A stretch of DNA of 44,911 bases from an uncultured archaeon (GCA_964444075.1 CAYUFF010000003.1:1-44911); one strand, 5' to 3'. Numbered from the stretch's first letter, positions 3,809 through 37,458 are shown. The notes: generated by a model from the letters alone, not told the origin. Program-made: numbers and translations.

Positions 3809-3840
3809 TCGTGTGGCACCGATAAAAAACTTCAGGCTCC

Positions 3841-15352: not shown

Positions 15353-17564
15353 CCTCCTCCTCTCCCTCGAACCTCGCCACGAGGTCGAACATTCCGGTAC
15401 CGGCCGGGACTACGTGACCCACCATCACGTTTTCGAAAATTCCCTTGAATTCTTCCGCTTCGTTCTTCACGGCGGCCCTTATCAAATGCTTAATCGTCTC
15501 CTCGAAGGCAGCCCTGGCGAGGACGGAAGTCTTGCTGCCCGCAACCCCGTACCTTCCTATGGGCATTATCCTCCCGGAGAAGGTCATTATATCGGCGACG
15601 AGCTCCACGTGTCTCCTGTCCACGTCCAGCCCCTGCTGGTTGAGCGTGTTCATGATTTCTTCGGCTATCAAGTTTCTCGCAGCCTCTATTCCGAGGACTT
15701 CGGCGACTTCGTGAATGTTGTTGGTAACCGTTTTCCTGGCGTCGACTTCTTCCATCCTCAAAATTTCCCTCAGGTTTGAACCCACCGTCATTATCACCCA
15801 CCTGTTCCCTTCCTGCTTAATCATTGCGTTCTTTATTCCTTTGATTGGAGAAATGGGAACGTTGAGAACCCTTTCCTTTATCCTTTCAAGCTCCTTCACG
15901 TCAACCTCTTTCTTCGGCGTGACGACTACCCCGTTCTTCTTGCTCCTCACCCTCACCTCTTTGATTTCTTTCTTTATCGCCGAAACTGCTTTTTCCACGT
16001 CGCTCTCGTTGGGAATCTCCACTTCTATGCTTCCCTTCTCCAAGTTCAAGGTAACCCTACTCGCTACGTCGGATAAAGACCTCTCGATAATCTTTTCCGC
16101 AAACTCTCTGGCTGCCTTCTCTGTGTTGTAACCGCTTTTCAGGTAAATTTTCATCTGCGGAGTTTCGGGGGTTTTCTTCGCATCGACTATCTCTATCAGC
16201 CTCGGAAGGCCGTAAGTAACTTTGGTCACCGCGGCACCCGCCACATGATAAGTTCGCATCGTGTTGTGGACTATTATTCCGTCGAAAGTGGCGAATGTAT
16301 GAGCTTCCTCGACGGAGATGTCGTAGATGTGTTCCCGCGACGGAGGAACTTCCTCTATCTCAACTATATCGTCCCAAACCACGTATGAGGTTGCTGTCAC
16401 AAAACCTCGCGATCCTTTCCAGAGAGCTCGGAAATCCTCAAAGGATATGCGAAGCTCATAACTCTTTCCGCTGACAGACTTGCGGGAGAATATTCCTAAC
16501 CTCGCCAAGAGGAGTTTCACTCCGTCTATGAACCCTTCCGATTGAGAAGAGAGTTTAATGGTTTTGTTTTTCGCGTCGAGCTTTCCTTTGCCGTCAAAAA
16601 TCGCTCTCAAGAAACCGGAAACGAAGCTTTCTTTCGCGCTAAAGACAAAGTTCGGTATTTTTCTTTCCTCTGGCTTGGCTCCAAAGCTTTTCGTCAAGAA
16701 ACCAGAGAGAGGATGGGAAGTGATAAGCAAAAAAATATTTTCCTCCATACGCTTCTCGTAATCCAACGAGAACCTTTCGAGGAAACCTTCGATTCTCTCG
16801 GCGAAATCCTCATTAGGGCAGGAGATGCGAATTATTCCACGGTCAACGTCAACGAAACCTCCGGAAGCGAAAGCCCCTAAGAAAAAGCCGAATAGCTCAT
16901 CCAACTCAACCTCACTTCCGAGAGCTCGCAATCGCAGGGTTTCCAAACAGTTGTGCGGCAGAAACTTTACGATAGGTACTTTCATCCCAACCCTAAGCTC
17001 GGAACCCTTTACGTTCACGAATCCTTCTCCTCCGTTGTTTTTGATCACGAACGCGTGACTCTTGCTGGCCAGGACCTTCCTCCCGCTTTTCGTGACCACC
17101 CTCAACAGATTTTCAGAAGTCTTCAGCCTCACGCAACCAGTTATCCTTTTCCAGCGAAGTCTCTCTTTTTCGTCCAAAGCCAGAGCATAGAGTTTCACTC
17201 CTTCTGGCAAGGTCAAGGCATCAACTCCACCGGAAGAAGTATAACCGTAAACTTCCATCAACCTGTCGACGAAAACCCCTACCGGAACTTTAAACACTCT
17301 ATCCCCTTCCCTAACCAGTATCCTCTCCTCGTAATCCAAGCACATTTGCGTAGCTGGTTCGGAGATGGATTGAGCGGCTATCAGGCCTATGGCCTCCCCA
17401 GGCTCCCAGCTGCTTTTCAAGTAAGCTTTCTTCACCTCCTCCTCCAACCTCTTGGCTTGTTCTTTATTCAACTTTCTTCTCCTCACAACCTCTTCGATTT
17501 TTTCTTTCAGGACTTTTGGGAGCTCTACCTCATCCGAAGAGCTGGGTTGCGATCCTTTCGACAT
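15345..17564 (-). CDS. rpoA2: RNA polymerase subunit A'' (Rpo1C), intein-containing
   Basis: PGEAIGLIAAQSISEPATQM|intein|TMRTYH..GLPRLIEIVDA, LGIEAAR, SVLARAAFE; 379 aa after splicing. Confidence 0.96.
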   Translation of the reverse strand: MSKGSQPSSSDEVELPKVLKEKIEEVVRRRKLNKEQAKRLEEEVKKAYLKSSWEPGEAIGLIAAQSISEPATQMCLDYEERILVREGDRVFKVPVGVFVDRLMEVYGYTSSGGVDALTLPEGVKLYALALDEKERLRWKRITGCVRLKTSENLLRVVTKSGRKVLASKSHAFVIKNNGGEGFVNVKGSELRVGMKVPIVKFLPHNCLETLRLRALGSEVELDELFGFFLGAFASGGFVDVDRGIIRISCPNEDFAERIEGFLERFSLDYEKRMEENIFLLITSHPLSGFLTKSFGAKPEERKIPNFVFSAKESFVSGFLRAIFDGKGKLDAKNKTIKLSSQSEGFIDGVKLLLARLGIFSRKSVSGKSYELRISFEDFRALWKGSRGFVTATSYVVWDDIVEIEEVPPSREHIYDISVEEAHTFATFDGIIVHNTMRTYHVAGAAVTKVTYGLPRLIEIVDAKKTPETPQMKIYLKSGYNTEKAAREFAEKIIERSLSDVASRVTLNLEKGSIEVEIPNESDVEKAVSAIKKEIKEVRVRSKKNGVVVTPKKEVDVKELERIKERVLNVPISPIKGIKNAMIKQEGNRWVIMTVGSNLREILRMEEVDARKTVTNNIHEVAEVLGIEAARNLIAEEIMNTLNQQGLDVDRRHVELVADIMTFSGRIMPIGRYGVAGSKTSVLARAAFEETIKHLIRAAVKNEAEEFKGIFENVMVGHVVPAGTGMFDLVARFEGEEEGG
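16263..17342 (-). mobile_element. Intein (360 aa) with degenerate LAGLIDADG homing endonuclease
   Basis: Begins CLDYEE and ends IYDISV..GIIVHN before Thr+1; SKSHAF block B; LAGLIDADG-like FFLGAFASGG and FLRAIFDGKG. Confidence 0.95.
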
Positions 17565-20500
17565 CTATACCACCCTCCACCCTTTCGATCTTTGAAGGAT
17601 CTAGTCCATCGCAACCAGCAGTAAACTGGATTATCTTTCCAGCGCTATCCCTCACCGTTCCGTCGTACTCTACCTTCAAATCTTGCAGAGCACCGACCAA
17701 CCTCCTCTCCATGTAGCCGGAATGTCTGGTTTTCAACGATTTGTCCATCAGGGATTCCCTGCTGTTCATCGCGTCGAAGAAGAATTCGAACGCGTTGAGA
17801 CCATCCTTAAACCCTCTCTTCACGAATCCCTTGCTCTCGATGGAGAGGTCTCCCACTTTGAAGTGTGGGAACGTCCTTCCGTAGTAACCTCTTTCTATCC
17901 TCTCCCCCATTATCGCCTCTTGACCTACGCACGCCGCAGTCTGTATTATGTTGACTATATCTCCTCTCGCACCGCTTCTCACCATCACCAGCGTGTCGTT
18001 TTCCTTCAAATGCTTGGTCAGCACCTCGTCTATCTCGCTCAACACCCTGTTCAACCTCCTCTTTATCATCGTCTCCAGAGTTTCTCTTGGGGTCCTTCCG
18101 ACCAGAACCTTCAGCTCACCCGCCTCAAACTTCCTGATGAGCTTGTCCACGTCTCTCTTCGCCGACTCAACGATCTCCTCTATCTCCCTCTTAGCCTTCG
18201 GTGGTAAGTCTTGGTCGGTGGGGCTTATAGAGAACCCTCTCATCATGAGGTATTCCAGAGCGAGCTTGGCTACCTTGAACAAAAACTCCTTCACGAACTC
18301 TTGCCCGTAGATAAGCTCCATCTTATCGATCATCTTGCCGCTCTCCGACGCGACGGCAACCTTATCCACGTAACCCTCGACCAACTTCCCATCCTTTATC
18401 ACAACTTTATCGCCGAGCTTCGTCTTAAATTCTACGCTGAAACCCTCTGGCAGGAAGAGGCTGAAAATTTCCCTACCGCTCATGGAGGACTTCTCAGGGA
18501 TTCTAACGTTCCTGTCTACGGCCCTGATTAGCTGAACGAACTCCCTCCTCGGTATTTTTTCCTCGTACTTCGTCAGCAGGTAGAGTCCGGTGACAAAGTC
18601 TTGTTTTATTCCTATGATCGGCCCCGAAAACCTTGGGCTCCTTATGTGCCTCGGGACCATCATCAACTCCACGGCCTCGGCCCTCGCCTCCTCGGTCTGG
18701 GGAATGTGGAGGTTCATCTCGTCTCCGTCAAAATCGGCGTTGTAGGGCGGACAGGTTGCGAGGTGCAGCCTCAAGGTTTTGAAGGGCATCACCCTGATCC
18801 TGTGGGCCATCACGCTCATCCTGTGCAGACTCGGCTGTCGGTTGAACAGCGCCACGTCTCCGTTGAGCAAATGCCTCTCGACGACCCATCCGTAGGCTAT
18901 TTCCCTCGCCACCTCTTCCTTGTTGGCTTCCGTGATCCTTTTCCTCCTGCCGTCAGGCCTAACTACGTAGTTAGCTCCTGGCCACGTATCAGGCCCGTTC
19001 AAAATCATCCTCCTCAACCTTTCCACGTTCCTCTCAGTCACCATCTCCGGTATCGTCAGCTCTCTCGCTATTTCTTCGGGGACGCCGACCTCGTCGATGT
19101 CTATCATGGAGTCGGGGCTCACCACCGACCTCGCCGAGAAGTTTACCCTCTTCCCAGCCAAGTTCCCCCTGAACCTCCCTTCCTTAGTCTTCAGCCTTTG
19201 GGAGAGTGTCTTGAGCGGCCTCCCAGACCTGTGTCTAGCAGGAGGAACTCCGCTGAGCTCGTTGTCGAAGTAAGTCGCGACGTGGTACTGCAGGAGCTCC
19301 CAAAGGTCTTGGATGATGAAATCCGGTGCTCCCAACTCAAGGTTCTCCCTTAACCTCTCGTTTATCCTTACGACGTCGACGAGCTTGTGGGTCAAGTCGT
19401 CTTCGCTCCTCTCGCCGGTCTCGAGCGTGATGCTGGGCCTCACGCTCACTGGCGGTACCGGGAGGAGGGTGATCACCAGCCACTCTGGTCTAAAGCCCTT
19501 GTAGCCAAGCAGCTCGAGGTCCTTCCCGTCCACCCTCTCCAACCTTTCCCTAACCTCTACCGGGGTCAATGGCGCGCTACCTTCGACGATCGTGTATGGC
19601 TTTATCAACTTTATCTTCTTTTGCTGCGCGCCGCAGTGTGGACACTTTTGTTTCACAACCTTCAAAACTTCCTTCAGCCTAAGCCTTTTCGCCTCTTTCA
19701 ACGTCTTTTCTGGTAAGAGAAGCCTTCCACATTTCCTGCAGAAAACTTTCAGCAAGTCTGTGATGAACTTGGAATAATGAACGTGGATAACGGGCTTTAC
19801 GAGTTCTATATAACCGAAATGCCCTTGACATTCTCCTATCCTACCACCGCAGGTTCTGCACCTTATCCCAGGGTCTATCACACCGAGCCTTGGGTCCATC
19901 AACCCTCCTTCGAGAGGATACCCCTCCTGGTCGTAGAGTTCCGTTCTTTTAATCTTCGCGGTGCTCATCTTCTTGACCATCTCTGGGCTGAGTATGCTGA
20001 ACTCTATCCTCTCGATGCCGCTACCGTCTTCCTTGATAACGACCTTGGGATAGATCATCATCGACATCAACTCTTGGAGGAGTAGCTTGAAGGCGTATGC
20101 CATTTCCACGTAGACTATCTTGCTCTCCCCGCAAACCTGGCAGTATTTCCTTCCCCTCACCCTATCCTCTATAGCTATCAGGCCGCATTGAGTACAGAAA
20201 GGAATCATAGCCTTGTCGGAATCGAACCTTTCCTTGAGGGCAAGCACGGAACCGTGAGCTATCAGGCAATCCTTCTCCATCTCACCAAACCTAAGACCAC
20301 CCTCTTTACTCCTTCCCTCGGTGGGCTGCTTCGTTAGCAGAGTTACTGGCCCTCTCGACCTTGCGTGAATCTTGTTTGAAACCAGATGGTCAAGCTTTTG
20401 GTAGTAGCAGCAGCCTATGAAGATTTTGACCTTGAACCTCTCTCCAGTCTTTCCGTTGTACATCGTTTCCACTCCGCTGTACTCGAAGCCCAACTCTTCG

Positions 20501-21819: not shown

Positions 21820-23314
21820 TCATCTCACCCTCTACTATCTTCATCAGCGGCTTCAAATCCTTTTCGTCCACTTCCTGGGTAACCTGAGACATCAAGCCAA
21901 GGTATTTTCTCAACCCTATCGTGGCTCCTTCTGGCGTTTCGGAACAGCAAAGCCTCCCGAAATGTGTGGGGTGTAACTCTCTCGCCTCGAAGTGCTCCTG
22001 CGTGGAGGTCAACGGAGAGTAGATGAGCCTCATGTGGGAGATCGTCTTAACGTAGCTGCTCCTCTCCAAGCGCTGCGAAACTCCCGTCCTACCTCCTGCC
22101 CAGCTTCCTATTGCTAAGGCAGAAACGAGTTGATTTGTAAGCACGTTCGCCTCGACGACCGCTTGCAACGGTGGTAGCTTTCCCCTCCTCGTGAGCTTCC
22201 TGTAATTGTAGTTTATCCTCGGTACCAACCCGTACCTTCCCAGCAAAATCGCCCTCAGCTGAATCTCCAACAAATCTCCGGCCAACCTCAACCTTTTGTT
22301 CATGTAGTGGTCGAGGTCGTCCTCATCTATCTCTCCTACGTGCAACCTCAACAGCTTTTCTACAGCCTTCGCCAAGAATGTCGCCTTCTTCATCCTATCC
22401 TTCGGTTGCTGACCGAGGTGTGGTAGGAGATACTTGTCGATCAACCTCGTGGCCCTTTCTATCCTCTTCTCCTTTGGCAGAGCCTTGAGGTATTCCCTCG
22501 CGATGGCGTCGAGAGCTTCCTTCACGTTGGTCGCATCGCACTCTACGAGGTTGACGTAGAATTCGTCCTGAATCCTAGGGTCGAGGGAAATGGCCGTCAT
22601 CACGTCCTTATCGCTCTCGAGGCCCAGGGCTTTCAGCACCGTTGCCACCGGAACCCTCAGCACGTTGGCGAAGGAAACCGTTATGATTCCGTTTTTCTTC
22701 CTTTCGAGCAGGTGCTTCTGCAGGTAGCCGTCCCTTTCGGAGTGTATTCTCGCGATTTCTGTGACGTTCCCTCCGTTCACCCTCCTCACCAAAACCCTGT
22801 TCGGAACGATCTCTTCCACCATCACCAGTATCCTTTCGGTCCCGTTGATTATGAAGTACCCACCAGGGTCGTCTGGGTCCTCACCGGCGTTTATTAGCTC
22901 GTTCCTGTCCATCTTGGATAGCGGGCAAATCTTAGATTTCACCATCACCGGAAGTTCCCCGAAGTTCACCCACTGAGGGTCACCCTCAATCCCGTTGATT
23001 ATGGGCGTGACCTCGATCCACATAGGAGCTGAATAAGTTAAATTCCTTACCCTCGCCTCGTAAGGCAGGATGGGCCTTTCGGAGCCGTCAACCTCCATAA
23101 CCCAAGGACCCCAGTCTTCCTTACCTACCCTGAATTCCCCGAGCTTTAGCTTCAGCTCCCCAACTTCCGGAACGCTCGGCTCTATGGTTCCTATGCTCTT
23201 GAATATCCTCGGTATCTTTTTTTCGACGAACTCGTTGTAAGAGTCTATCTGGTGCTTTACCAGACTGTTTTCTTTCAGGTAGGCGTTGAGCAAAACTGCA
23301 AAATTTTCGTTCAC
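21812..23314 (-). CDS. rpoB2: RNA polymerase subunit B'' (Rpo2N)
   Basis: [49 protein letters not shown]. Confidence 0.97.
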
Positions 23315-23550
23315 CCTTTCACCACAACCCTATAATACACGTTCTCCCCGGCCGTAGGACTCTTCCTGATTATCTTCACGACGTCCCCCGGCTTTGCTCC
23401 CAACAACTTCGCGACCGGGTCTGACGCGAGCATCCTCGGGAGTTGTTTTAGCGTGGCGCGGTATTCTTTCAAAACTTCTTTCCTCTCTTCCTCGCTGAGT
23501 AAGACGTGCTTCGGGACTAACTCGTGTTCCAAGATGTTAAACTCCTTCAA
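23311..23550 (-). CDS. rpoH: RNA polymerase subunit H (Rpo5)
   Basis: [33 protein letters not shown]. Confidence 0.97.
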
Positions 23551-23585
23551 AAACCCACCCTTGAAACTATTACCTTTCCGTCAAA

Positions 23586-23600
23586 CAATATAAAGTTTAC
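23586..23600 (-). promoter_or_regulatory. Putative BRE/TATA promoter of the rpo operon
   Basis: Minus strand GTAAACTTTATATTG about 40 bp upstream of rpoH. Confidence 0.5.
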
Positions 23601-23697
23601 GCTTTTAAATCTTTAATGCTTCTCTTCGCGGCGAACGGCCCCCAGAGCGCTACGCTTACGTAACGCATTTAAACTTTGACGCACAAAAAGTTATCCT

Positions 23698-24222
23698 ATG
23701 GGAGAGGGACCGGGATTCATTCTGGATTGTGTTCGTTACGGAAACACTCCCATGTTTGATTTGATGAGGGACGATACGCTCGAGCGCTACTATCACGTGA
23801 AATGTAAGGAATGCGGTAACACTTTGGTTACCGAGCTTACAGGTAGGGAGGTTTCCAAAGGTGGGAAAATCCTTTATTGCGAGAGGGACGGTAAACCCAC
23901 GTACCATGAAATCGAAAAACCGGTCTTGTGGCACCGCAACCCCTACGAGGGGACGATAAAGGTTTACAGGGGTAGTGAAATGGTAGAGGAATTTAACAAC
24001 CTCAAGGAATTGCTCGACTGGCTTGGAGGGATAGATGAGCCCATATTCGTCCTCAACGGTCTCCCCGAAATACTGGGAGAAGGTAGGCGAGAGGTTCTAG
24101 CGTTCCGAAACGCGGAAGAATACAGACGGTGGCACGTCGCGAACAAAGAAAGGTTTTTGAGGAAAGAGGAAGAGTTAGAGAAAAGGTACGGACGTTGGTT
24201 CATCCTCGACGACTCCGTTTAA
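23698..24222 (+). CDS. Hypothetical protein with possible Zn ribbon
   Basis: CKECG...YCERDGKPTYH; composition resembles other genes in the window. Confidence 0.65.
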   Translation: MGEGPGFILDCVRYGNTPMFDLMRDDTLERYYHVKCKECGNTLVTELTGREVSKGGKILYCERDGKPTYHEIEKPVLWHRNPYEGTIKVYRGSEMVEEFNNLKELLDWLGGIDEPIFVLNGLPEILGEGRREVLAFRNAEEYRRWHVANKERFLRKEEELEKRYGRWFILDDSV

Positions 24223-24234
24223 GGGAAGAATTGT

Positions 24235-25962
24235 TCACTTCTTCCTTTTCTGAAGGTCGTAGAGGTACCTTATCCTGTCGATCGTGTCCGCTTCGTCCGG
24301 AGACTTGTCCGGCCTCAAGGCTATGAACCGCGGAAACCTCAAGGCGAACCCAGAGGGATAGTTGGGGGATTTTTGGATCTCTTGATAGTCTACTGAAACG
24401 ACAACCTTAGGCCTGATCCTCACCTCGGTTCCCTTCTCGAACTCGATCAAGGGTTTTAGCATCTGGGTTAGTTCCTCGAAGGTAACGTCCTCGGGCCTTG
24501 TTTTCTTTTCCTTTATCCCCGTTCCCATCATCCCGCATTCCAGAAACTTTCCAGTATCCGGGTCCCTGCATCCGAGGATGAACGAGCTCAGCCAGCCTGC
24601 CCTTTTACCTGTACCCCACGTAGCACCTATGATCACGAGGTCCAAGGTTTCTAGGGTAGGCTTGATTTTGTACATATGCCCCACATGCCTGCCAAAAACG
24701 TAGGGAGAGTTGAGGTTCTTCATCATTATTCCCTCCTGCCCGAGACTCAACGAGTATTGATAAAACTCTTCCGCTTTTTTAACGTCGTCGGTTACGAGTT
24801 GCTCTGCTAAGCAGAAGCTCCCGGGAACCTCGTTGACGATCGACTTCAGGATTTCCCACCTTTCTTTCAAAGGTTTGTCGAAGAGCATCTCCCCGTTGAG
24901 ATAAACGATGTCGAAAAGGTTCATCTGGATGGGAATTTTCCTCATCATTTCTTCGATGTTGTACTTTCTGTGGATTCGCTCCGACAACCTTTGGAAAGGC
25001 AGCGGCTTCCTCGTAACTGGGTCTATAGCCCATACCTCGCCCTCGACGATGCACTCCTCGGCCCTCAAGTTTTGCCTGCAAAGTTCCACCAAGTCTGGAA
25101 ACTGCTCAGTGACGTTCTCTAGCCTCCTAGTAAACACCCACACCCTATCTCCCTTCTTGTGGACCTGGCTCCTCATTCCGTCGTACTTGATTTGGATTGC
25201 ACACTTCCCGAATTCCTTGATGACCTGCTCTATGGACTCTGCCTTTTCAGCGAGCATGACTTGGATGGGCCTACCGAGCTCTACCTTAACGTTTTTCAAA
25301 CCTTCGGCACCTTCTTTCTTCGCAACCTCGGCGATTTCTCCGAAGTCGCCGCGGAGGTTCCAAGCGTAATCGACGAGCTCCGTCAACCTTTCTCTCTCAG
25401 ATTTGCTAACTCCGTCCTTTACCAAGAACGCGTCTACTATCGCATCCCTCAGTATACCTTCGGCGACGCCAACCCTAAGCTCCCCGAGGACCGTCCTTAC
25501 CAAGTACCTGGCCTCTTTGGGTTCTGCAGATGCTAATAACTCCGCAATAAGATTCAGCTTCCTTTCCTGCGAACCCTCGCCGGTTTCCAAGGGAATTTTC
25601 TTGAGGTTATCGAAGACGAACTCGACAGTGAGCTGTTTCCTGAACAGGGTCATTTGCTTCCTTTTCTTGAGGAGTTTTTCCGCCGTCAACCCGAGGTCCC
25701 CAGTTTCAGCGAAGACCCTTTCGACTTCTTTCGTAGAAACTCCGGCGACCTTCGCTATAACCCTTATCATCAGCTGCGTCGCCACTCCGAGTTCGAGCAT
25801 CGTGTACTTCGGATAAACGAGGCCCTCGGAGAGCAACACGACCTTCCTCAACAACTCCTCCGGAACTTTTTTCAGGAACGATGCAAGGATGGCGGTTTTT
25901 CCTAGCTTGGAGGGTTCTCTCTCTAGTCTTTCGTAAAGCTCCGCGATTTCCCTGTACAGCAA
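24235..25962 (-). CDS. lig: ATP-dependent DNA ligase
   Basis: KYDG adenylation motif, VEGE, LFDI, EGIMMK, TLDLVIIG, LRFPRF. Confidence 0.97.
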   Translation of the reverse strand: MLYREIAELYERLEREPSKLGKTAILASFLKKVPEELLRKVVLLSEGLVYPKYTMLELGVATQLMIRVIAKVAGVSTKEVERVFAETGDLGLTAEKLLKKRKQMTLFRKQLTVEFVFDNLKKIPLETGEGSQERKLNLIAELLASAEPKEARYLVRTVLGELRVGVAEGILRDAIVDAFLVKDGVSKSERERLTELVDYAWNLRGDFGEIAEVAKKEGAEGLKNVKVELGRPIQVMLAEKAESIEQVIKEFGKCAIQIKYDGMRSQVHKKGDRVWVFTRRLENVTEQFPDLVELCRQNLRAEECIVEGEVWAIDPVTRKPLPFQRLSERIHRKYNIEEMMRKIPIQMNLFDIVYLNGEMLFDKPLKERWEILKSIVNEVPGSFCLAEQLVTDDVKKAEEFYQYSLSLGQEGIMMKNLNSPYVFGRHVGHMYKIKPTLETLDLVIIGATWGTGKRAGWLSSFILGCRDPDTGKFLECGMMGTGIKEKKTRPEDVTFEELTQMLKPLIEFEKGTEVRIRPKVVVSVDYQEIQKSPNYPSGFALRFPRFIALRPDKSPDEADTIDRIRYLYDLQKRKK

Positions 25963-26007
25963 CCTTTCACCGATAGGAATTTGAATTTTACTCTAAAATT
26001 TTTTCGC

Positions 26008-27087
26008 ATGAAGTTTTTCGGAGAGAGGGGAGCAGTGAGCGAACTCGGGAATCTGGAAAAAGTTCTGATCCCCCATCCGAGGAGCAGTTGGGTAGAAGAA
26101 ATAAGGTTAATCCGTTTCGCGAAGTGGGGAACGAGGAGCGAGAAAGTCCTGAAAAGGAAGGAGAAAAATTTCGGAGTGCTCTACCCTTTGATAGAGGATT
26201 TCACCGAGCTTCTAAAGGAAGAAGGTGTGAAGTACAAGCTATTATGGTTCTATCCCTCGCTGTCCGAGATGGGCGAAAAAGAACTTCTCTACGACGAAGA
26301 AGACGTTACCGCCCTTTCTTGCAACGGGGGGCCGTTTTCAGTTTTTTTGAGGGATTTGGGAATATTTTCCTCGAAGGATTATTTCGCGACGAAGTTCGAA
26401 GGGTGGAGAAAGGAAGTATACGGTAACCTTGCTAAGGAACTTTCGAAACTCGTGGGAAAGGAAATAGGGAAAGAAAAAATTAAAGAAGGTGCGCCAGAAG
26501 GCGGTGGTGTGGTTTCGGACGGGAACGTTACCATAATTTCGGTGATTTACGAGGATGAATTCCTGAAAGTCGTGAAAGAGTTGGAGGAAGAATTCGGCAA
26601 CAAACTGATAGCCGCACCGTCGATGAACATGCACGTAGACGCCGTACTGAACTTTCCAGAAAGGGGAACAGTCGTTTACTCTCACTCTTCGGTAAAGTAC
26701 GTGAAGAAGAACGTGTCACAGACAGAAAGGGTTAACCTTTCCCTGAGCGTCCCCAAAGTTATCTCTGAGTTTTTGGAAAAGGAGTTGGGGTATAGGAGGG
26801 TAGTGGTAGACGACGATGAAGTAACGCCAGTGGATAGTAATTTTCTCGTGCTGAAAAGCGGGAAGGTAATGACACTCGACAGGAAAGGGAGGTTTTCGAA
26901 AAGGTTGGAGAGAGAAGGTATAGACGTGCTGAACCTCTACGACGAGAAGCTAGAAAAAGTTTACAGATGGCTTCTCGCAAGGGAAGGAGGTATGAGATGC
27001 CTTTGCCTTCCTGTGAAGAGAAGGTATGTTAAAACGAAGGAGGATTATCCGGAGGAAAGTTGTATGCGGAAGAAGTTTACACTCTGA
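26008..27087 (+). CDS. Amidinotransferase/arginine deiminase (pentein) superfamily protein
   Basis: VSELGNLEKVLI, FLRD, EGG, MHVD, GGMRC catalytic motifs; start uncertain (25981/26008). Confidence 0.8.
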   Translation: MKFFGERGAVSELGNLEKVLIPHPRSSWVEEIRLIRFAKWGTRSEKVLKRKEKNFGVLYPLIEDFTELLKEEGVKYKLLWFYPSLSEMGEKELLYDEEDVTALSCNGGPFSVFLRDLGIFSSKDYFATKFEGWRKEVYGNLAKELSKLVGKEIGKEKIKEGAPEGGGVVSDGNVTIISVIYEDEFLKVVKELEEEFGNKLIAAPSMNMHVDAVLNFPERGTVVYSHSSVKYVKKNVSQTERVNLSLSVPKVISEFLEKELGYRRVVVDDDEVTPVDSNFLVLKSGKVMTLDRKGRFSKRLEREGIDVLNLYDEKLEKVYRWLLAREGGMRCLCLPVKRRYVKTKEDYPEESCMRKKFTL

Positions 27088-27432
27088 GTTTATACTTTTT
27101 CTCTAAAATTTTCGATATTTCCCTTATCACAAATCTTGCTTTCTTCAGAGCGTCTCCGGCGATTTCTTTGGTATATTCCTTAAAAGGATCCTAGATGTAT
27201 CCTTTTCCAACGAAAGGGTAACGCGGTTTTACCCAATGTCTTTCCAAATCTCTAATTTTTCTTTTTGGAAAACTTTCTCGAACCACTTGGCAATTCTGTG
27301 CTTTTCGATAAAAGCGTTCTCTACCGCTAACAACGCCTTCGCTGCTTTTTCCGCAGCTTGCTGAGCATGATAGGCAGCGTCGGCATATTGGTTTGCTCTT
27401 AATAAGATTTGTGAGGAGCGTAAGTCTTCCCC
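27077..27432 (-). pseudogene. HEPN domain pseudogene (5'-truncated, frameshift, internal TAG)
   Basis: GEDLRSSQILLRANQYADAAYHAQQAAEKAAKALL..KH, then after a frameshift RDLERHWVKPRYPFVGKGYI*DPFKEYTKEIAGDALKKARFV. Confidence 0.8.
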
Positions 27433-27439
27433 GCTCTTC

Positions 27440-27762
27440 TCATCTCTTGGTGACGATTGGGTATCTTGTTCTTGGAAACTCCAATTCGAATTCCCTTACC
27501 ATCTCCACGATCTTCTTCAAGCTTTCCAATTCTTCTTTTCTTACAGCCACTACTAGTAAAGGTGGGACTTCATGTGTCCTCAACACACGAAACCCCTTTG
27601 CATACAGTAAAACTTTAATAATTTTTTCAACAGCCTGTTGACAATGGAAGATTACTCTCCCATACTTCTTCTCTCTCATTAAAATTTCAGCAACCTCAAG
27701 GTCGCTAAAGCTTCTATCATAAAAGCTCTTGCAAACCTTAAACTTTTACTCTTACGCACCAT
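27440..27762 (-). pseudogene. HEPN domain pseudogene (frameshift near 27710, 3'-truncated)
   Basis: MVRKSKSLRFARAFMIEA / SDLEVAEILMREKKYGRVIFHCQQAVEKIIKVLL..RTHEV..RTRYP, then stops early. Confidence 0.8.
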
Positions 27763-27880
27763 GGCTTTCTCCTCACTTCTATACGCTTCTTAACGTTCTC
27801 CATTAGAGGAAGATGTTTTCAAAACCATAAAGAATTACTCCGTGCAATAACGCGTGGAAAACGAGTTTCGGAAATTGGCG
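27738..27880 (-). pseudogene. Possible C-terminal remnant of a minimal nucleotidyltransferase (MNT)
   Basis: LVFHALLHGVILYG resembles the MNT C-terminal 'aL.eG.vLy' segment and lies directly upstream of the HEPN start. Confidence 0.4.
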
Positions 27881-28287
27881 GAAGGATTCGCGTTAGGCGT
27901 CTAACACAACCTGCTGAGAGGTTGAAGAAATAGCTAGTTAAATAACCCATGTCAGCTATCAGCACGATAATGACGATGAGGCTAGGATACTCGCCTACTT
28001 TGTGAGATTTAGGTAAAATTTTTTACACACACCCTTAGCTACCGCTCTCTCAGCGAAGACGAAATAAAACGCGCCCATCCCTTTAACCCTTTACAATCCA
28101 AACAACGTAGAAATCAAGAACATAGCGATAACCGCTGAAATAAACAACAAGTACACGGGAAAGTAGAAACTTACATCAACGAAACCAAGAATCGACCAAA
28201 CCTTTCAACTTTAAGAAATTCTCGATAAGGCTCCCAGAAGGAACTCTAGAAAATGAGGTTGCATTTCGGAAGAATAAACTTGCTAAA

Positions 28288-28500
28288 TTATTCCCAAATG
28301 GTCAGGTGACACTTCCCGCAGTAATACCTCTTCTTCCCGTCCTTCTCCTTATGGACGGCCATGAAAGTGTCTCCACACCTCTTACACCTAACTCCGACTA
28401 CCTCAACCCTACCGTCTTCGGTAACCTTGTAGAACTTGCTTATCCTAACCGGCTTGTGCTTCACCACTCTTTTCACCCTCAGCTTCCTTACCCTTTTCAA
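28288..28500 (-). CDS. rps27ae: 30S ribosomal protein S27ae (likely start GTG near 28467)
   Basis: FYKV..CKRCG..FMAVH..RYYCGKCHLT; GAGGGTGA RBS just before the GTG at 28467. Confidence 0.93.
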   Translation of the reverse strand: MKRVRKLRVKRVVKHKPVRISKFYKVTEDGRVEVVGVRCKRCGDTFMAVHKEKDGKKRYYCGKCHLTIWE

Positions 28501-28765
28501 CAGCCTCGGCTTTTTCAGTAACCTTTTCCTCGACCTTGGGCTTTTCCTCCAGTATCTTAGCCTTGACGCTGGAAATTTGCGTCCCTTTGGAAGTCGCGAT
28601 CCTATCGATAACGACTTGCGAAACGTCTACATTAAAAATTTCGGCAAGCTTTTTCCTCACTTCTTCGCAACTCGGAGTTGGAGCATTGGGATGAGCTACC
28701 TCAGCTCTAATTTCCTTCCTCTTCAGCAATGGATTCTCCTTTTCTTCGAGAATCTTGACCTCCAT
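28445..28765 (-). CDS. rps24e: 30S ribosomal protein S24e
   Basis: EEKENPLLKRKEI..H..PTPS. Confidence 0.92.
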   Translation of the reverse strand: MEVKILEEKENPLLKRKEIRAEVAHPNAPTPSCEEVRKKLAEIFNVDVSQVVIDRIATSKGTQISSVKAKILEEKPKVEEKVTEKAEAVEKGKEAEGEKSGEAQAG

Positions 28766-28769
28766 CCGA

Positions 28770-28961
28770 TCACCCTACGTAGAGAGCATACTTACCCTTT
28801 TCCTCGATTCCCAAAAACTTAGCGAGCTCGCTATCCTCCGGCGATAAAACTACTACCAACCCCTTCCAGCTCGTCGACAAGTTAGTCGATTTGCAATAAG
28901 GGCAGATTTTTTCCGTGGTGAACCTCTTGCAGTTCCTGCAGACGTAAGTCCTCTTCACCAT
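28770..28961 (-). CDS. spt4: Transcription elongation factor Spt4 (RpoE'')
   Basis: CRNC..CPYC..SWKGLVVV..SELAK..GKYAL. Confidence 0.95.
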   Translation of the reverse strand: MVKRTYVCRNCKRFTTEKICPYCKSTNLSTSWKGLVVVLSPEDSELAKFLGIEEKGKYALYVG

Positions 28962-28994
28962 AACTAAAAATCTGAAAGCTTGAGGTTAAAAATC

Positions 28995-29819
28995 TTACCC
29001 TACTTTTTTTGCTTTTTGCCAAATGACCTCGAACAGCGGCTGGAAAACCCTTTCCGCGGCATGCTCGCTCCTTGACCAAATAGCTAGGTGCTGACTTGGA
29101 TCTACCTTGTGGTCAGTGAGGGAAAGCAACAACTGCTTTCTGTCGACGGTACAGAACCCTCCTGCGATCGGAAGCTCTTTCTCGTTAACCGACCTTATCT
29201 CAGCGACGCCGCTCAAAGCTTTTATAGCATCGCTACAACCTTCGTTGATAACACTAGCTATCCTTATGTTAACGCCCCTGTCTTTGAGGGTTTTCAGCAG
29301 AGTAAAGTGATGCTCCGCGAGGTCCCTCAGCCCGTGAGGATCCGTAAGTATGCTTATCTCTCGCTCAGCTCCCTTGAACATGTTCGACATCTGTTGGTTC
29401 ACGGTAAACTTTCCTTTGAGTGCTCCCGTAAGCTCCTCAGGTTCGACGAGCTTCAAACCTTTTTCGTAAAGCTTTTCCAGCTCCTCGATTATCGGAGATT
29501 CTAAAATCTCATCTATCCTGCTCATCGCCTCCCTCATCTTCTCCTCAATCTTTTTCTTAGCTCTCTCCAGCGCTTCTCTGGGAGAAAGGGCGACAAACCT
29601 CAGTGGCCTCGCGGTTTGGATTACTATGAATCCCTTTTCCGCGAGGCTTTCCAGCGTGTCGTAGGTCCTGCTCCTCGGAACTCTAGTAAGCTGAGACAGC
29701 TCACCGGCCGTAGAAACACCCCTAGCCAAAAGGGCTACCCAAAGCTTTCTCTCGTAAAGGTTCAATCCTATGGTCTTGAGAGCGTCCATCACCTTTCTCG
29801 GAAACTCCATCCACACCAC
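28995..29819 (-). CDS. TrmB-family (TrmBL2-like) regulator/chromatin protein
   Basis: GLNLYERKLWVALL..AGELS..VPRSRTYDTLESLAEKGF wHTH, coiled coil, PLD-like C-terminal domain. Confidence 0.9.
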   Translation of the reverse strand: MVWMEFPRKVMDALKTIGLNLYERKLWVALLARGVSTAGELSQLTRVPRSRTYDTLESLAEKGFIVIQTARPLRFVALSPREALERAKKKIEEKMREAMSRIDEILESPIIEELEKLYEKGLKLVEPEELTGALKGKFTVNQQMSNMFKGAEREISILTDPHGLRDLAEHHFTLLKTLKDRGVNIRIASVINEGCSDAIKALSGVAEIRSVNEKELPIAGGFCTVDRKQLLLSLTDHKVDPSQHLAIWSRSEHAAERVFQPLFEVIWQKAKKVG

Positions 29820-33391: not shown

Positions 33392-33665
33392 GTACTATAT
33401 AGAGGGAAATTTTTAAAAAAAGTTTCCCTGTCTACTGTCTACTACTACCAAGGCATTATCCAACCTTGAGAACCTTGCTAAGCAATCAAAATTTCACAGA
33501 AGCTGTCGAATGAGGATGTCACGTAGCAATTCATAACAATTCACACCTCTAGTTACCATTTTTTTACTCTCATGGTTGAGCGATTATCCTATCGAGTTTG
33601 CATTTGAGTTGTGAGTTTTGGGTTTTGAGAAAACCTTTTTATTTTTCTTTTTCAAAATAAACCTC

Positions 33666-34787
33666 ATGGGAAGGAAGACGAGAAAAACTAAAAAGAAAGA
33701 CTTGGACCTGGATATCAAAGGGGAAAACGTCTCTAAACATGTTCTCAAGGTTCACGACACGGACGAAGAGCTCAGGAAAGTAATAGCCGAAAGCAAACCA
33801 AAGATAAAGGTCGTTGGCACTGGAGGAGCTGGATGCAACACGATAACGAGGCTGATGGAAGTCGGAATCGAGGGCGTGGAAACGATAGCAGTTAATACAG
33901 ATGCCCTCGACTTGCTCCATTCGAAAGCTCACAAGAAAGTGTTGATAGGAAGAAGTTTGACTCACGGACTAGGTGCTGGAGCAAACCCAAAGAAAGGTTA
34001 TGAAGCCGCGCAGGAAAGCAAGGAGAAGTTGAAGGAAGTGCTGAGGGATGCGGATATGGTGTTCTTGACTTGTGGCTTGGGAGGAGGAACGGGCACGGGA
34101 AGCATGCCTGTAATTGCAGAGATGGCTAAGAGGGAAGGTGCTTTGGTAGTAGGAGTTGTCACGCTTCCATTTTCCATGGAAGGAAGGGAAAGGATGAAGA
34201 ACGCCAGGGAAGGCGTAGAGAAGCTTGAAAAGCTCGTCGATACGTTGATAGTGATTCCCAACGACAAGCTGCTGGAGCTAGCTCCTGATGCAACGCTCCA
34301 GCAAGCGTTCAGGATGTGTGACGAAATTTTGATTAGCGCCGTCAAGGGAATAGCGGAGCTCGTTACCAAGCCTGGGTTGATAAACAGAGACTACGCAGAC
34401 GTGAGAGCTGTCATGGAAAACGGCGGGCTCGCGATGATAGGCGTCGGTGAGAGCGACACGGATAATAGGGCTATAGATTCCGTGAGGAAAGCCATCAACA
34501 ACCCACTGCTCAGCGTTGATATAAAGGATGCTAAAGGAGCTCTCATCCACATAGTGAGCGGTCCTAACATCAAGATAACAGAAGCTCAGCAAATCGTCGA
34601 GAGTATTTCATCCCAACTTTCCCCAGAAGCGAAAATACTATGGGGAGCCTCGATAGACGAAAGCCTCGGGGATAAGATAAGGACCATCCTCGTAGTAACG
34701 GGGATAAACTCTCCGCAAATACTCGGGAAAGGGAGCGAGGGAGCGAGGGAGATGGAAAAGCTTTTAAATATAAGAGTCGTAGAATAG
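33666..34787 (+). CDS. ftsZ: Cell division protein FtsZ
   Basis: VGTGGAGCN, NTD, GAGANP, GGGTGTG, INRDYAD T7 loop. Confidence 0.97.
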   Translation: MGRKTRKTKKKDLDLDIKGENVSKHVLKVHDTDEELRKVIAESKPKIKVVGTGGAGCNTITRLMEVGIEGVETIAVNTDALDLLHSKAHKKVLIGRSLTHGLGAGANPKKGYEAAQESKEKLKEVLRDADMVFLTCGLGGGTGTGSMPVIAEMAKREGALVVGVVTLPFSMEGRERMKNAREGVEKLEKLVDTLIVIPNDKLLELAPDATLQQAFRMCDEILISAVKGIAELVTKPGLINRDYADVRAVMENGGLAMIGVGESDTDNRAIDSVRKAINNPLLSVDIKDAKGALIHIVSGPNIKITEAQQIVESISSQLSPEAKILWGASIDESLGDKIRTILVVTGINSPQILGKGSEGAREMEKLLNIRVVE

Positions 34788-34793
34788 TGATTA

Positions 34794-34973
34794 ATGAGGC
34801 TCGTCGAGAGACTAGCGGAGAAGCTGGGTTGCTACAGGAGGGTGTTGACGGCGTGCAGGAAGCCCGATAGGGAGGAGTTCGTTGGCTACTTGAAAGAGTG
34901 CTTGGTCGGGACGTTGATAATAGGTTTAATAGGCTTCCTCTTTTATCTAATCTTCGCGGTGGTGAGCCTATGA
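34794..34973 (+). CDS. secE: Protein translocase subunit SecE/Sec61-gamma (59 aa, absent from the ORF track)
   Basis: Manual translation MRLVERLAEKLGCYRRVLTACRKPDREEF...GTLIIGLIGFLFYLIF; canonical ftsZ-secE-spt5 position. Confidence 0.92.
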   Translation: MRLVERLAEKLGCYRRVLTACRKPDREEFVGYLKECLVGTLIIGLIGFLFYLIFAVVSL

Positions 34974-35413
34974 TTTACACGGTAAAGACGGTCGTCGGGA
35001 GGGAGGACGCGGTCCTGGACGCGATAGCTACGAGAGCCCAAACGCAGGGACTTAACATAAAGGCCTTAATCCACCCAGAAGAGATCAAGGGATACATCTT
35101 CGTGGAAGGGGAGCTCGACGACATCCTCAAGGCGATGGGCGGTGTTCCACACGTGAGGGGGGTAATCAAAAAACCGATCGAGATAAAGGAGATTGAAAGG
35201 TTCTTGAAGCCGAAAGTCGAGGAAATCGAGCTGGGTGTAGGCGACGTCGTGGAGGTTATCGGAGGTCCTTTCAAGGGTGAAAGGGGAAGGATTACTAAGT
35301 ACGACAAGGTTAAGGGTGAGGTGACGCTGGAACTGTTGGAGGTTTCCGTGCCTATTCCGGTTACGGTTTCTGCCGAGTTCGTGAAGCTCGTGGAGAGGAA
35401 GGGGAAGGAGTAA
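34970..35413 (+). CDS. spt5: Transcription elongation factor Spt5/NusG
   Basis: MIYTVKTVVGRE..KGYIFVE NGN domain and GDVVEVIGGPFKG KOW domain; ATGA overlap with secE. Confidence 0.96.
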   Translation: MIYTVKTVVGREDAVLDAIATRAQTQGLNIKALIHPEEIKGYIFVEGELDDILKAMGGVPHVRGVIKKPIEIKEIERFLKPKVEEIELGVGDVVEVIGGPFKGERGRITKYDKVKGEVTLELLEVSVPIPVTVSAEFVKLVERKGKE

Positions 35414-35425
35414 CGGCGTGGGACC

Positions 35426-35713
35426 ATGGCGAAGGTTTCGGAACTCATCAAGAAGGAGCTCAAGGTTGAAAAGGTAAAGCTCGATGAAAGCGAGAAGGCG
35501 AAGGGAAAGGAAAGCGTAGGCGACCTGAAGATGGAGCAGGTCGTCAAGATAGCCAGAGAAAAGATGGGTGACATGATGGTCGGCAGCCTGAAAGCCGCTG
35601 TGAAGACGGTCTTGGGAAGTATGGTGAGCATGCCCGTTACCGTGGAAGGGAAGAAGCCGAAGGAAATTTTGAGGGAGGTAGAGGATGGTAAGTGGGACGA
35701 GGTGATAAAATAG
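35426..35713 (+). CDS. rpl11: 50S ribosomal protein L11, C-terminal RNA-binding domain only
   Basis: SELIKKEL..VGDLKMEQVVKIA..LKAAVKTVLGS..SMPVTVEGK.P; canonical position. Confidence 0.9.
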   Translation: MAKVSELIKKELKVEKVKLDESEKAKGKESVGDLKMEQVVKIAREKMGDMMVGSLKAAVKTVLGSMVSMPVTVEGKKPKEILREVEDGKWDEVIK

Positions 35714-35767
35714 TTTTAAAGCATCGCCGCTAATCTTTATAAGTTCGAAGGTTCGAGGGGTGACGAC

Positions 35768-36394
35768 GTGTTCGAAAAGGAGGAGCTGAAGGAAGCCATA
35801 AAGAAAGTGAGGGAAAGTTCCAAGAAGAGAAACTTTGTACAGAGCGTCGAGCTCATCGTCAACCTCAAGGACCTCGACCTGAAAAAGCCGGAGAACAGGA
35901 TGAACGAGGTCGTTTTTTTACCCAAGGGAAGGGGGAAGGAAGCTAAGGTAGTCTTGTTCAGCGACAGCATCAAGGAAGCGGAGTGCGAGATTCTCAGTAG
36001 CAAAGAAATAGAGCTCCTCGCGAAGAACAAGAGGGAGGCGAAAAAGCTCGCTAACAAGACCGACTTTTTCCTGGCGGAGCCTGTTTTGATGCCGGTAGTG
36101 GGTAGGTACCTCGGAATAGTCTTGGGTCCTCGCGGTAAGATGCCGAAGGTAGTGAGCGGGGACGTCAACGCGATGGTAAGAAGCCTGAAGAACTCGGTGA
36201 GGATAAAGGTGAAAGATAACCCTACAGTGCAGTGTATGATCGGGACGGAGGGTATGGGGGATGAAGAGTTGGCAGAAAATGCTCTCGCTGTGTTAAAATT
36301 TTTGGAGGAGAAGCTCCCCAAGGGAAGGAAAAACGTAAGGAACGTGCTCGTAAAGTTTACGATGTCTAAACCTGTAAAGGTAGGTAAGGGTTGA
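35768..36394 (+). CDS. rpl1: 50S ribosomal protein L1
   Basis: KKRNFVQSVELIVNLK, LGPRGKMP, KFTM. Confidence 0.96.
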   Translation: MFEKEELKEAIKKVRESSKKRNFVQSVELIVNLKDLDLKKPENRMNEVVFLPKGRGKEAKVVLFSDSIKEAECEILSSKEIELLAKNKREAKKLANKTDFFLAEPVLMPVVGRYLGIVLGPRGKMPKVVSGDVNAMVRSLKNSVRIKVKDNPTVQCMIGTEGMGDEELAENALAVLKFLEEKLPKGRKNVRNVLVKFTMSKPVKVGKG

Positions 36395-36398
36395 GAGG

Positions 36399-37157
36399 GT
36401 GGTCAAAGAGGAGAAGGTGAGGGAGGTCGAAAGGGTACTGGACCTAATAAACTCCCACAGGACCATCGGGATAATAGACCTTCACAGGATGCCAACAAGG
36501 GAACTGAAGGAGATAAAGAGGAAGCTTAAGGATAAGACCGTCGTCACCGTCACCAAGAAAACGCTCTTCAAGATAGCGATTGAAAGGTCCGGTAAGAAGA
36601 ACCTGGAAAAGCTCATCGACTACTTTCCGGCATACATGGGCCTCGTTTTCAGCAACCTCGATGCCTTCAAGACGTTCAAGCTTGTTAAAGAAATGAAATC
36701 CGCCACCTTCGCCAGGGAGGGCGACGTCGCCGAGAAAGATATAGAGGTCAAGGCTGGTCCGACAAACTTGAGTCCTGGACCTGTAATCGGAGAGCTTAAC
36801 AAGGTCGGCCTTCCCGTAGGAATAGAAGGAGGAAGGATAGTCGTCAAGAAAGATACCGTCTTGGTGAAAGCCGGGGAAACGATCTCGAAGGAAGTGGCGA
36901 GCGTGCTGCAAAAGCTCGGAATTCCAGCGAAGGAAATAGGGCTTAAGGTGCAAGCGTTGTACGAGGATGGTGAGGTTTATCCGAAAGACATTCTCGAGCT
37001 CGTCGGAGAGCCTATGGTCGAGGAAATGAGGAAGGCGATAAACAGGGCGATAAATCTCTCCATAGCCATCGAATACCCAACGAAAGAAACTGTAGGCTTT
37101 TTATTTGCGAAGGCTTATAATATTGCTAAGTTTATAAAAGAAAGGGTCGGTGGTTAG
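36399..37157 (+). CDS. rpl10: 50S ribosomal protein L10 (P0), C-terminally short
   Basis: KKTLF, AGPTNLSPGP insertion domain, LQKLGI, AINLSIAIEYPTKET. Confidence 0.93.
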   Translation: MVKEEKVREVERVLDLINSHRTIGIIDLHRMPTRELKEIKRKLKDKTVVTVTKKTLFKIAIERSGKKNLEKLIDYFPAYMGLVFSNLDAFKTFKLVKEMKSATFAREGDVAEKDIEVKAGPTNLSPGPVIGELNKVGLPVGIEGGRIVVKKDTVLVKAGETISKEVASVLQKLGIPAKEIGLKVQALYEDGEVYPKDILELVGEPMVEEMRKAINRAINLSIAIEYPTKETVGFLFAKAYNIAKFIKERVGG

Positions 37158-37158
37158 G

Positions 37159-37458
37159 ATGCAGGAAATATATTCTGCCTTGCTTTTGCACGCGGCGAAG
37201 AAGCCGATAACGGAGGAGAACATAAAGAAGGTCTTGGAAACCGTGGGTGCTGAGATAGACGAGGGTAGGATAAAAGCTCTTGTCGCGAGCCTTGAGGGTC
37301 AGGATATAGAGGAGTTGATCAAGCAGGCTAGCTCAGCGATGGTTGCCACCGCTCCTGCCGAAAAGAAGGAGGAAGAAAAAGAGGAGAAGAAAGAAGAGGA
37401 GGAAGAGAAGAAAGCAGAAGAAGCGGCCACCGCTGGTTTGTCAGCGCTCTTCGGCTAA
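37159..37458 (+). CDS. rpl12: 50S ribosomal protein L12 (aP1)
   Basis: IYSALLLH..IKALVASLEG, acidic hinge, GLSALFG. Confidence 0.97.
   Translation: MQEIYSALLLHAAKKPITEENIKKVLETVGAEIDEGRIKALVASLEGQDIEELIKQASSAMVATAPAEKKEEEKEEKKEEEEEKKAEEAATAGLSALFG

Follow-up and report, generated by a model that had tools for sequence, protein, structure and literature searches.

The ribosomal protein uL11 is universally conserved and consists of two domains, of which the N-terminal domain (N-domain) forms half of the thiopeptide pocket. To our knowledge, the N-domain is part of every structural account of the docking of elongation, release and stringent factors. The C-terminal domain (CTD) binds rRNA and the N-domain contacts translation factors, and both domains fold independently (PMC9122527). 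At the base of the ribosomal stalk, L11 contacts helix 43 (H43) and L10 binds H42 (PMC1635324), and thiopeptides sit in the cleft between the uL11 N-domain and H43/H44, stacking on prolines of the N-domain (PMC5960728). The GTPase centre is known to work without the N-domain at a slower rate, as in the E. coli rplK knockout and the yeast rpl12a/b double deletion (PMC7782861, PMC9122527): E. coli grows without uL11 (PMC7782861), and the yeast double deletion is viable, with slow growth and reduced factor-dependent activity (PMC9122527). In these laboratory mutants, however, the whole of uL11 is gone and the growth is poor, whereas in the case described below the N-domain alone is gone, and the RNA-binding half is conserved and fixed in natural lineages. 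Reductive evolution of the ribosome has likewise been described for tiny-genome bacteria (Nikolaeva et al. 2020, PMC7782861), but that survey deals with bacteria and required both domains before a two-domain protein such as uL11 was scored as present; in the passages considered, uL11 appears only in the knockout list and under the counting rule, with no mention of a loss at the domain level.

The closest described proteins are the archaeal L11P (P. furiosus, 4v6u chain BH; M. jannaschii, 5col and 5d8h), with which the protein analysed here shares the C-terminal two thirds, namely its linker helix, RNA-binding domain of three helices and C-terminal helix, together with the spt5-L11-L1-P0-P1 gene cluster. 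It differs from L11P in that residues 1 to about 70 (Ribosomal_L11_N, with the GPPxGP-type loop) are absent and that the loop after the linker helix is longer by five residues. The nearest functional analogues are the engineered C-terminal fragments of bacterial L11 (1hc8, the CTD chains of 1mms, and 1y39), likewise isolated CTDs, of about 70-76 residues, bound to H43/H44 RNA in the 58-nt GTPase-centre fragment. Such isolated fragments bind GTPase-centre RNA with full affinity. Unlike these laboratory truncations of bacterial proteins, the form in question is a natural gene kept across genera, and carries the archaeal linker and C-terminal helices. No description of a uL11 without N-domain was found in the open-access full-text literature, to which the search was confined.

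The window, i.e. the whole stretch of 44,911 nucleotides under analysis, belongs to a metagenome-assembled genome (G000) of 928,422 bases in 76 contigs with a completeness of 93%. All the genomes compared are metagenome assemblies, and the family and genus codes used below (f1, g5 and so on) are the tool's own. A close homologue of 96 aa (P0009) is deposited at NCBI under the label 'hypothetical protein [Candidatus Aenigmarchaeota archaeon]', and the lineage was therefore taken as a DPANN archaeon. The features of the locus are listed in the table.

Features of the spt5-uL11-uL1-P0-P1 region, in positions of the window
Feature	Coordinates	Strand	Length	Match or remark
ftsZ	33618..34787	+		gene upstream of secE
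secE	34794..34973	+		gene between ftsZ and spt5
spt5 (NusG homologue)	34970..35413	+	147 aa	Spt5-NGN 59.5 bits, KOW 33.4 bits
spt5-uL11 spacer	35414..35425	+	12 nt	relatives encode the N-terminal domain of ~70 residues at this place
uL11, reduced to linker helix and C-terminal RNA-binding domain	35426..35713	+	95 aa	stop within the coordinates; PF00298 only
extended charged loop of uL11	35462..35518	+	residues ~13-31	KVEKVKLDESEKAKGKESV; by alignment, 5 residues longer than in Pyrococcus L11
uL1	35768..36394	+	208 aa	PF00687 158.3 bits
uL10/P0	36399..37157	+	252 aa	stalk base protein binding next to uL11; Ribosomal_L10 64.4 bits, RL10P_insert 68.3 bits
P1 stalk protein	37150..37458	+	102 aa	Ribosomal_60s 55.9 bits; acidic tail ends LSALFG

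The uL11 gene directly follows the stop codon of spt5 (TAA at 35411-35413), and in relatives with full-length uL11 the gene including the N-domain also lies directly 3' of spt5. The two genes of the window share the same frame; the in-frame codons after the spt5 stop, CGG CGT GGG ACC, include no start, nor was any in-frame start present upstream of the ATG at 35426. The claim of the sequence-only reading that this position leaves no room for an N-domain was thus borne out. The product begins with MAKVSELIKKEL, and its sole Pfam match is PF00298, the RNA-binding domain of L11 (52.8 bits; cut-off 21.4), which spans residues 3-73 of the ORF and positions 4-69 of the 69 of the profile; no match to the N-terminal domain PF03946 was detected within the ORF. 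Upon alignment with solved structures, the ORF corresponded to residues 73-158 of L11P in 4v6u (chain BH, 164 aa) and to residues 74-159 of 5col_A, indicating that it starts in the interdomain linker, as had been proposed. The gene is a single copy, providing the only PF00298 match above the cut-off in the genome, and is located within the conserved archaeal cluster. Sequence, fold, synteny and copy number identify the protein as an orthologue of uL11; of the features that define the family it lacks the N-terminal domain, and it is best classed as a new, naturally truncated variant of uL11.

An AlphaFold2 model of the 95-aa protein was built from an alignment of 27 rows and gave a mean pLDDT of 82.7, the lowest blocks (64-69) being at the loop of residues 11-30. 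The top Foldseek match of this predicted model was 5d8h_C, the M. jannaschii L11 in the crystal of the P-stalk base with rRNA and thiostrepton (TM 0.86, rmsd 2.6 A, 95 columns, 45% identity), and the model was also superposed on complexes of RNA with the isolated L11 CTD, 1hc8_B (TM 0.78 to the target) and 1mms_B (0.85). The predicted CTD fold is thus in agreement with the solved L11-rRNA complexes, and the protein retains each of the 11 invariant columns of alignment A2. The insertion of five residues relative to 4v6u_BH falls between ELK and VGDL. The charged segment noticed by the sequence-only reading corresponds to this longer loop and has no link with the domain loss: the longer charged loop was also found in full-length uL11 of relatives, so that it represents a trait of the lineage and not a correlate of N-domain loss, and the idea of a compensation for the absent domain was ruled out.

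Whether the N-domain is encoded elsewhere in the genome was examined by profile searches. The whole of G000 contained no PF03946 match above the cut-off, the best score being 8.9 bits (E 1.6) inside a 650-aa frame, whereas the same search gave a match in all 14 control genomes; nor was a full-length rpl11 present elsewhere in G000. A lineage-specific profile was made from 24 N-domains of relatives (alignment A1), degenerate forms included. This profile detected uL11 in 26 of 26 relatives at 30-134 bits, again including the degenerate forms and with two genomes outside the training set (G010 and G025) among the 26, and gave E 1.4e-35 for the positive control G002. No N-domain was detected with it among 16,501 six-frame frames of G000 (best E 0.67, 10 bits), nor in nine further genomes with short uL11 (G004, G005, G014, G019, G056, G055, G059, G058 and G084), where the best match was at E 0.047 and 13.7 bits in a 200-aa frame. 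The absence of the N-domain thus refers to ten genomes searched with the lineage profile, and not to one closed genome; near-closed assemblies are included, i.e. G056 with 3 contigs, G055 with 5, G059 with 7 and G004 with 8.

These results bear on the possibility, raised also in the sequence-only reading, of a split gene, in which the N-domain would be made as a separate small protein from another locus and join the ribosome in trans. The independent folding of the two domains (PMC9122527) would allow such an arrangement, and the 93% complete assembly would leave some room for the missing gene. Nevertheless, PF03946 was above the cut-off in none of 16 genomes of the family (15 with short frames plus G057), and the lineage profile was negative in G000 and in the nine others, the assemblies of 3-8 contigs among them, making a split gene very improbable. 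An error of the assembly, or a recent pseudogene created by a deletion or chimeric join in this genome alone, is hardly credible. A collapsed assembly is conceivable from the position of uL11 in frame with spt5 at a distance of 12 nt, but two DNA runs from hydrothermal-vent metagenomes cover this place: a 170-nt contig of run X2, which comes from another sample and another study, extends over 35383-35552, across both the spt5 stop and the start of uL11, and is free of differences, and a 5636-nt contig of run X1, possibly the source sample, spans 34700-36500 with one difference (C>T at 35430). No RNA run was listed as containing the locus. Since the contig from the second study bridges the junction without difference, a misassembly at 35414-35426, which the sequence-only reading had named as a danger, is excluded. 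The identical architecture was found at locus L157 of another metagenome assembly, and the short gene is present in 14 other genomes, of four other genera, in all of which the CTD is intact and passes the Pfam cut-off. Only in G000 does uL11 lie in the spt5 frame; the genes of G014 and G019 overlap but are read in different frames, and a conserved Spt5-uL11 read-through fusion was accordingly ruled out.

The length of uL11 was surveyed among 70 genomes (27 genera) of the family. PF00298 matched in 69 of the 70, and in 15 the match was in a short stop-to-stop frame (14 of 99-125 aa, and one of 151 aa in G055). The short frames are distributed over five genera: G000 itself, ten genomes of genus g5, G005 (g6), G014 (g15), and G019 and G084 (g20). 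One further g5 genome, G057 (73% complete), gave no uL11 match whatever. PF03946 was above the cut-off in 0 of these 16 genomes versus 53 of the remaining 54; the only trace was a 14-bit hit in an unrelated 184-aa frame of G014, and the exception among the 54, G009, carries a degenerate N-domain of 18 bits in a full-length frame. The gene order ftsZ-secE-spt5-uL11CTD-uL1-P0 is conserved in G000, G005, G014 and G019, while in G004 the short gene is located 3' of spt5 and uL1 lies elsewhere. Since the CTD is above the Pfam cut-off in all 15 short-frame genomes, the RNA-binding half of uL11 is held under constraint across genera. The CTDs of g5 are the most divergent, with PF00298 scores of 27-43 bits, as compared with 47-74 in the remaining archaeal uL11s of the family.

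Five database clusters (P0003, P0006, P0007, P0009 and P0015) also represent the short form: the proteins are 95-100 aa in length, match PF00298 only, share 62-67% identity with the window protein, and all start M-x-T-V/I-S/A/T-E-L, two to three residues ahead of the conserved LIKKEL. P0049, P0061, P0070, P0089 and P0102 were rejected as CTD-only genes, being fragments which start inside the N-domain. After the window protein itself, the closest database homologue is P0002, a full-length protein of 165 aa with 73% identity, and this is closer than the short form of the sister genome G014 (62% over the same region), which hints at a recent loss. Among uL1 relatives in metagenomes, L157, which is the organism itself, is followed by a nearest relative of 63% identity, and many of the loci are without an adjacent uL11.

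Some additional observations were made on uL11 in the survey. Full-length frames with N-domains lacking the GGKAxPGP-type motif were noted at L024 (G009), L042 (G031), L037 (G034), L044 (G025) and L034 (G038); these N-domains fall short of the Pfam threshold or only just reach it, and resemble intermediate stages from an intact to an absent domain. Contig C37 of G012 (L004/L014) carries a bacterial-type L11 with a KGSGEPNK loop and 95-97 bits for both Pfam domains; as G012 has its own archaeal uL11 on C10, the bacterial-type copy is probably a contamination. In the same order, G026 (f3, 81% complete) and G030 (f7, 88%) gave neither a C- nor an N-domain match of uL11, for which a complete loss or an assembly gap is possible.

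The short form is not a peculiarity of one genome, as it recurs across the phylum. In the survey of 371 genomes of the phylum, PF00298 was detected in 341 and PF03946 in 301, and the deficit of N- against C-domains was concentrated in four families: f1, the family of the window (CTD 68/69, N-domain 53/69), f2 (3/3 and 0/3), f22 (3/6 and 0/6), and f40 (G354-G370; 17/17 and 0/17). The f2 genes are full-length frames with degenerate N-domains. All the frames checked in f40 (G358, 86 aa; G356, 85 aa; G369, 109 aa) and in f22 (G210, 93 aa; G214, 114 aa) were CTD-only; this check covered the five genomes named. Differing tallies of the two domains were also noted for a few scattered single genomes. 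The short gene of f40 no longer adjoins spt5 or uL1. Some lineages of Aenigmarchaeota thus have an intact N-domain, some a degenerate one, and others none.

The number of losses was estimated on trees which rest on one or two genes and quick searches. On the phylum tree of aEF-2 (45 rows, LG+G4, quick search, no mixture model), f40 was recovered with a support of 100, and f22, also with 100, as the sister (100) of the N-domain-bearing G187 of f21; f40 and f22 fall within a deep clade that is split from the family of the window with a support of 100. The short state required six changes on this tree, five of which are forced by well-supported branches. Within the family, four changes were needed on each of the trees. 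For aEF-2 under the PMSF model (46 rows), a single clade of all 12 short-uL11 rows was rejected (delta lnL 71.7, p-AU 0.00065). The well-supported branches forced all four changes on the RpoA1 tree, three on the tree of aEF-2 plus RpoA1 (1557 columns, LG+G4), and one on the tree of Spt5, uL1 and uL11, which is of low resolution. With aEF-2 plus RpoA1 the single clade of 12 was rejected marginally (p-AU 0.041), and a single clade of the five non-g5 rows was not rejected (p 0.41). The tests of a single origin inside the family thus disagree, and repeated loss is therefore claimed mainly from the phylum-level aEF-2 tree. Altogether, the N-domain was lost independently at least three times in the phylum (f1, f22 and f40) and probably five or six times; in the family of the window there were at least two losses (g5 and the rest), the number being uncertain.

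The rRNA target of uL11 was then inspected. The 23S gene of G000, on contig C8 at about 22840-29171 (- strand; locus L045, 3140-3872), contains several introns with LAGLIDADG-type ORFs (at locus L045, all on the minus strand: 3-713, 706-1455, 2979-3857 and 4820-5188), and one of the introns interrupts the GTPase-associated centre in its H44 loop. The 5' exon extends through GGCUUAGAAGCAGCCAUCCUCUAAGGAGUGCGUAA, and past the intron the gene resumes with CGCGAAACAGCUCACCUGCCGAGG. When the junctions were co-folded, helices of 12 bp and of 3 bp (GCG/CGC) formed, the first followed by a bulge of 3 nt (UAA) and the second by one of 6 nt (GAAACA), so that in this folding model the junction is a bulge-helix-bulge-like substrate. 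Cuts at symmetrical places within the bulges restore GCGUAACAGC, the archaeal Rfam consensus of the H44 loop, and the H43 loop of G000, GGCUUAGAAGCAGCC, equals the archaeal Rfam consensus as it stands. The mature H43/H44 loops of this organism would thus be canonical upon splicing of the bulge-helix-bulge type, as judged from the gene sequence. An intron is present at the same H44 site in G013, which has a full-length uL11. Two apparent anomalies were traced to the H44-loop intron and discarded: an aberrant H44 loop, GCGAAACAGC, given by a pattern search, and a 178-nt insertion seeming to replace H43 in cmscan. The partners of uL11, namely the H43/H44 site, P0, P1 and aEF-2, are all present in G000.

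Genomes with full-length uL11 and assembled rRNA carried GGCU(U/C)AGAAGCAGCC in H43 without exception (14/14), and GUGCGUAA(C/U)AGC in H44 in 12 of the 14, the element of G013 being interrupted by its intron; the exceptions for H44 are G064 and G022, with AUGCGUAACAGC. The sequence in G002 is GUGUGUAAUAAC. All six genomes of genus g5 examined had one of two paired changes of H43 and H44 (L092-L097 versus L098-L111): G055, G060 and G054 combine AGAAUCAGCC in H43 with GUUCGUAACAGA in H44, and G056 and G004 combine AGAAGUAGCC with GUGUGUAACAAC, while G057 has AGAAGUAGCC in H43 and its H44 was seen as far as GUGUGUAACAAC. The altered positions correspond to what we take to be, in E. coli numbering, the base triples 1071/(1091-1100) and 1072/(1092-1099) that join H43 to H44. 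Each triple is altered at all three positions while the loop adenines (1067 and 1095) are retained, and the changes look like compensated swaps. This comparison represents one lineage of short-uL11 relatives and is thus an observation, not a correlation; assembled rRNA was lacking for g6, g15 and g20.

Taken together, the genome-wide absence of the N-domain and the recurrence in relatives support a natural CTD-only uL11, as the sequence-only reading had proposed. We estimate at roughly 0.85 the probability that the gene encodes a real, conserved uL11 from which the factor-contacting N-terminal domain was cleanly deleted, with a new start codon in the interdomain linker, within a phylum-wide relaxation. 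The linker helix, a three-helix domain for RNA binding and the archaeal C-terminal helix make up the remaining 95 residues. Such a protein should bind and stabilize the H43/H44 fold beside P0 and keep the base of the stalk intact, and the recruitment of factors would rest on the P0/P1 stalk. This stalk, together with the sarcin-ricin loop and the tips of H43/H44, left bare, would then have to position and switch aEF-2, aEF-1A and the other GTPases, and the kinetic or switching contribution of the N-domain would be forgone, a cost that slow-growing, host-dependent cells may tolerate. The incorporation of the CTD-only uL11 into ribosomes, its RNA binding and the way the GTPase centre copes with it are predicted here from the gene and its relatives. 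The loss would be one case of a relaxed constraint on the N-domain extending over the small-genome Aenigmarchaeota.

Two other explanations accept the deletion but differ in what followed from it or favoured it. An unrelated protein, an extended part of a neighbouring one such as the insertion domain of P0, or a host factor may have assumed the role of the N-domain, with remodelling of the GTPase centre. The uL11 N-domain and the extension domain of uL10 both contact translation factors (PMC9122527), the insertion domain of P0 is retained, and the rRNA and CTD of g5 both evolve unusually fast, all of which would fit a replacement. We regard it as unlikely, as P0 has a length of about 250 aa whether or not a relative possesses the N-domain, and aEF-2 is devoid of convergent change. 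The scan of the aEF-2 alignment gave one weak column with states common to at least three of the four short-uL11 lineages, and two conservative columns of I-to-L/V; a convergent change was thus rejected and there is no sign of co-adaptation in aEF-2. No candidate for the replacing protein was identified, although this is a weak test, covering P0 and aEF-2. Alternatively, the loss may have been adaptive: removal of the N-domain takes away half of the pocket for thiopeptides of the thiostrepton and micrococcin class, formed by the N-domain, with its prolines, and H43/H44 (PMC5960728), and the repeated losses could have been selected as resistance instead of arising by neutral erosion. The recurrent, clean and convergent deletions at the same position of the linker suit selection as well as relaxation. 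Against this, those N-domains that are degenerate and yet retained (G009, f2 and genus g34) look like a relaxed constraint, A1067 and A1095 are retained in the rRNA, and neither thiopeptide producers nor exposure are documented here; selection for resistance is accordingly given a low probability, and relaxed constraint with a clean deletion is retained as the preferred explanation.

A wider reading can be offered tentatively, and we hold it to be rather less likely than not to apply in full: the uL11 N-domain would be dispensable in nature, having been lost at least five times in one archaeal phylum; elongation, termination and recycling would run with a bare H43/H44 cleft; the GTPase centre would be insensitive to thiopeptides and work in a different manner, possibly under selection, with a compensated rewiring of base triples in at least one genus. 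A CTD-only uL11 that is natural and conserved and has evolved repeatedly provides a ready-made experiment on what the N-domain is needed for, and defines a smaller natural GTPase centre useful for work on minimal ribosomes. Ribosomes with this protein should lack half of the thiopeptide pocket, and an intrinsic insensitivity is predicted. With intact, degenerate and absent N-domains in one phylum, the succession of steps by which the ribosome was reduced also becomes open to testing. In practical terms, the label of P0009 as a hypothetical protein indicates that automatic annotation misses the short form. Ribosomal_L11_N serves as a single-copy marker in completeness estimators, and lineages with short uL11 would therefore be systematically under-scored.

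Several minor features of the window and its relatives were also noted. The P0/uL10 protein of the window ends without an acidic tail of the P1 type, and P0 of the relatives is about 246-281 aa in length. Archaeal P0 has been described to carry a C-terminal extension of about 80-100 residues (PMC1635324), and the stalk here, P0 being short, may bind fewer P1 dimers. The aEF-2 of G000 is located within a 1212-aa open frame (C12:15535-19170, + strand); the match to other aEF-2 proteins breaks off past residue 46 or so and continues from 510, which is what an intein of about 460 aa in the G domain would produce, and similarly long aEF-2 frames exist in G031, G038, G042 and G056. An intein-like insertion was also observed in FtsZ upstream of secE at L030 (G005), L035 (G014) and L038 (G019), where the insert ends with VHN immediately ahead of the resuming TGTGS or TGSGS; FtsZ is uninterrupted in the window and in G004. 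The match to RNA polymerase subunit A' (17551-20016, - strand of the window) is within a 1429-aa open frame, and A' frames of 1429-1502 aa were found in about a dozen relatives, suggesting an in-frame fusion or adjacency with an upstream polymerase subunit gene.
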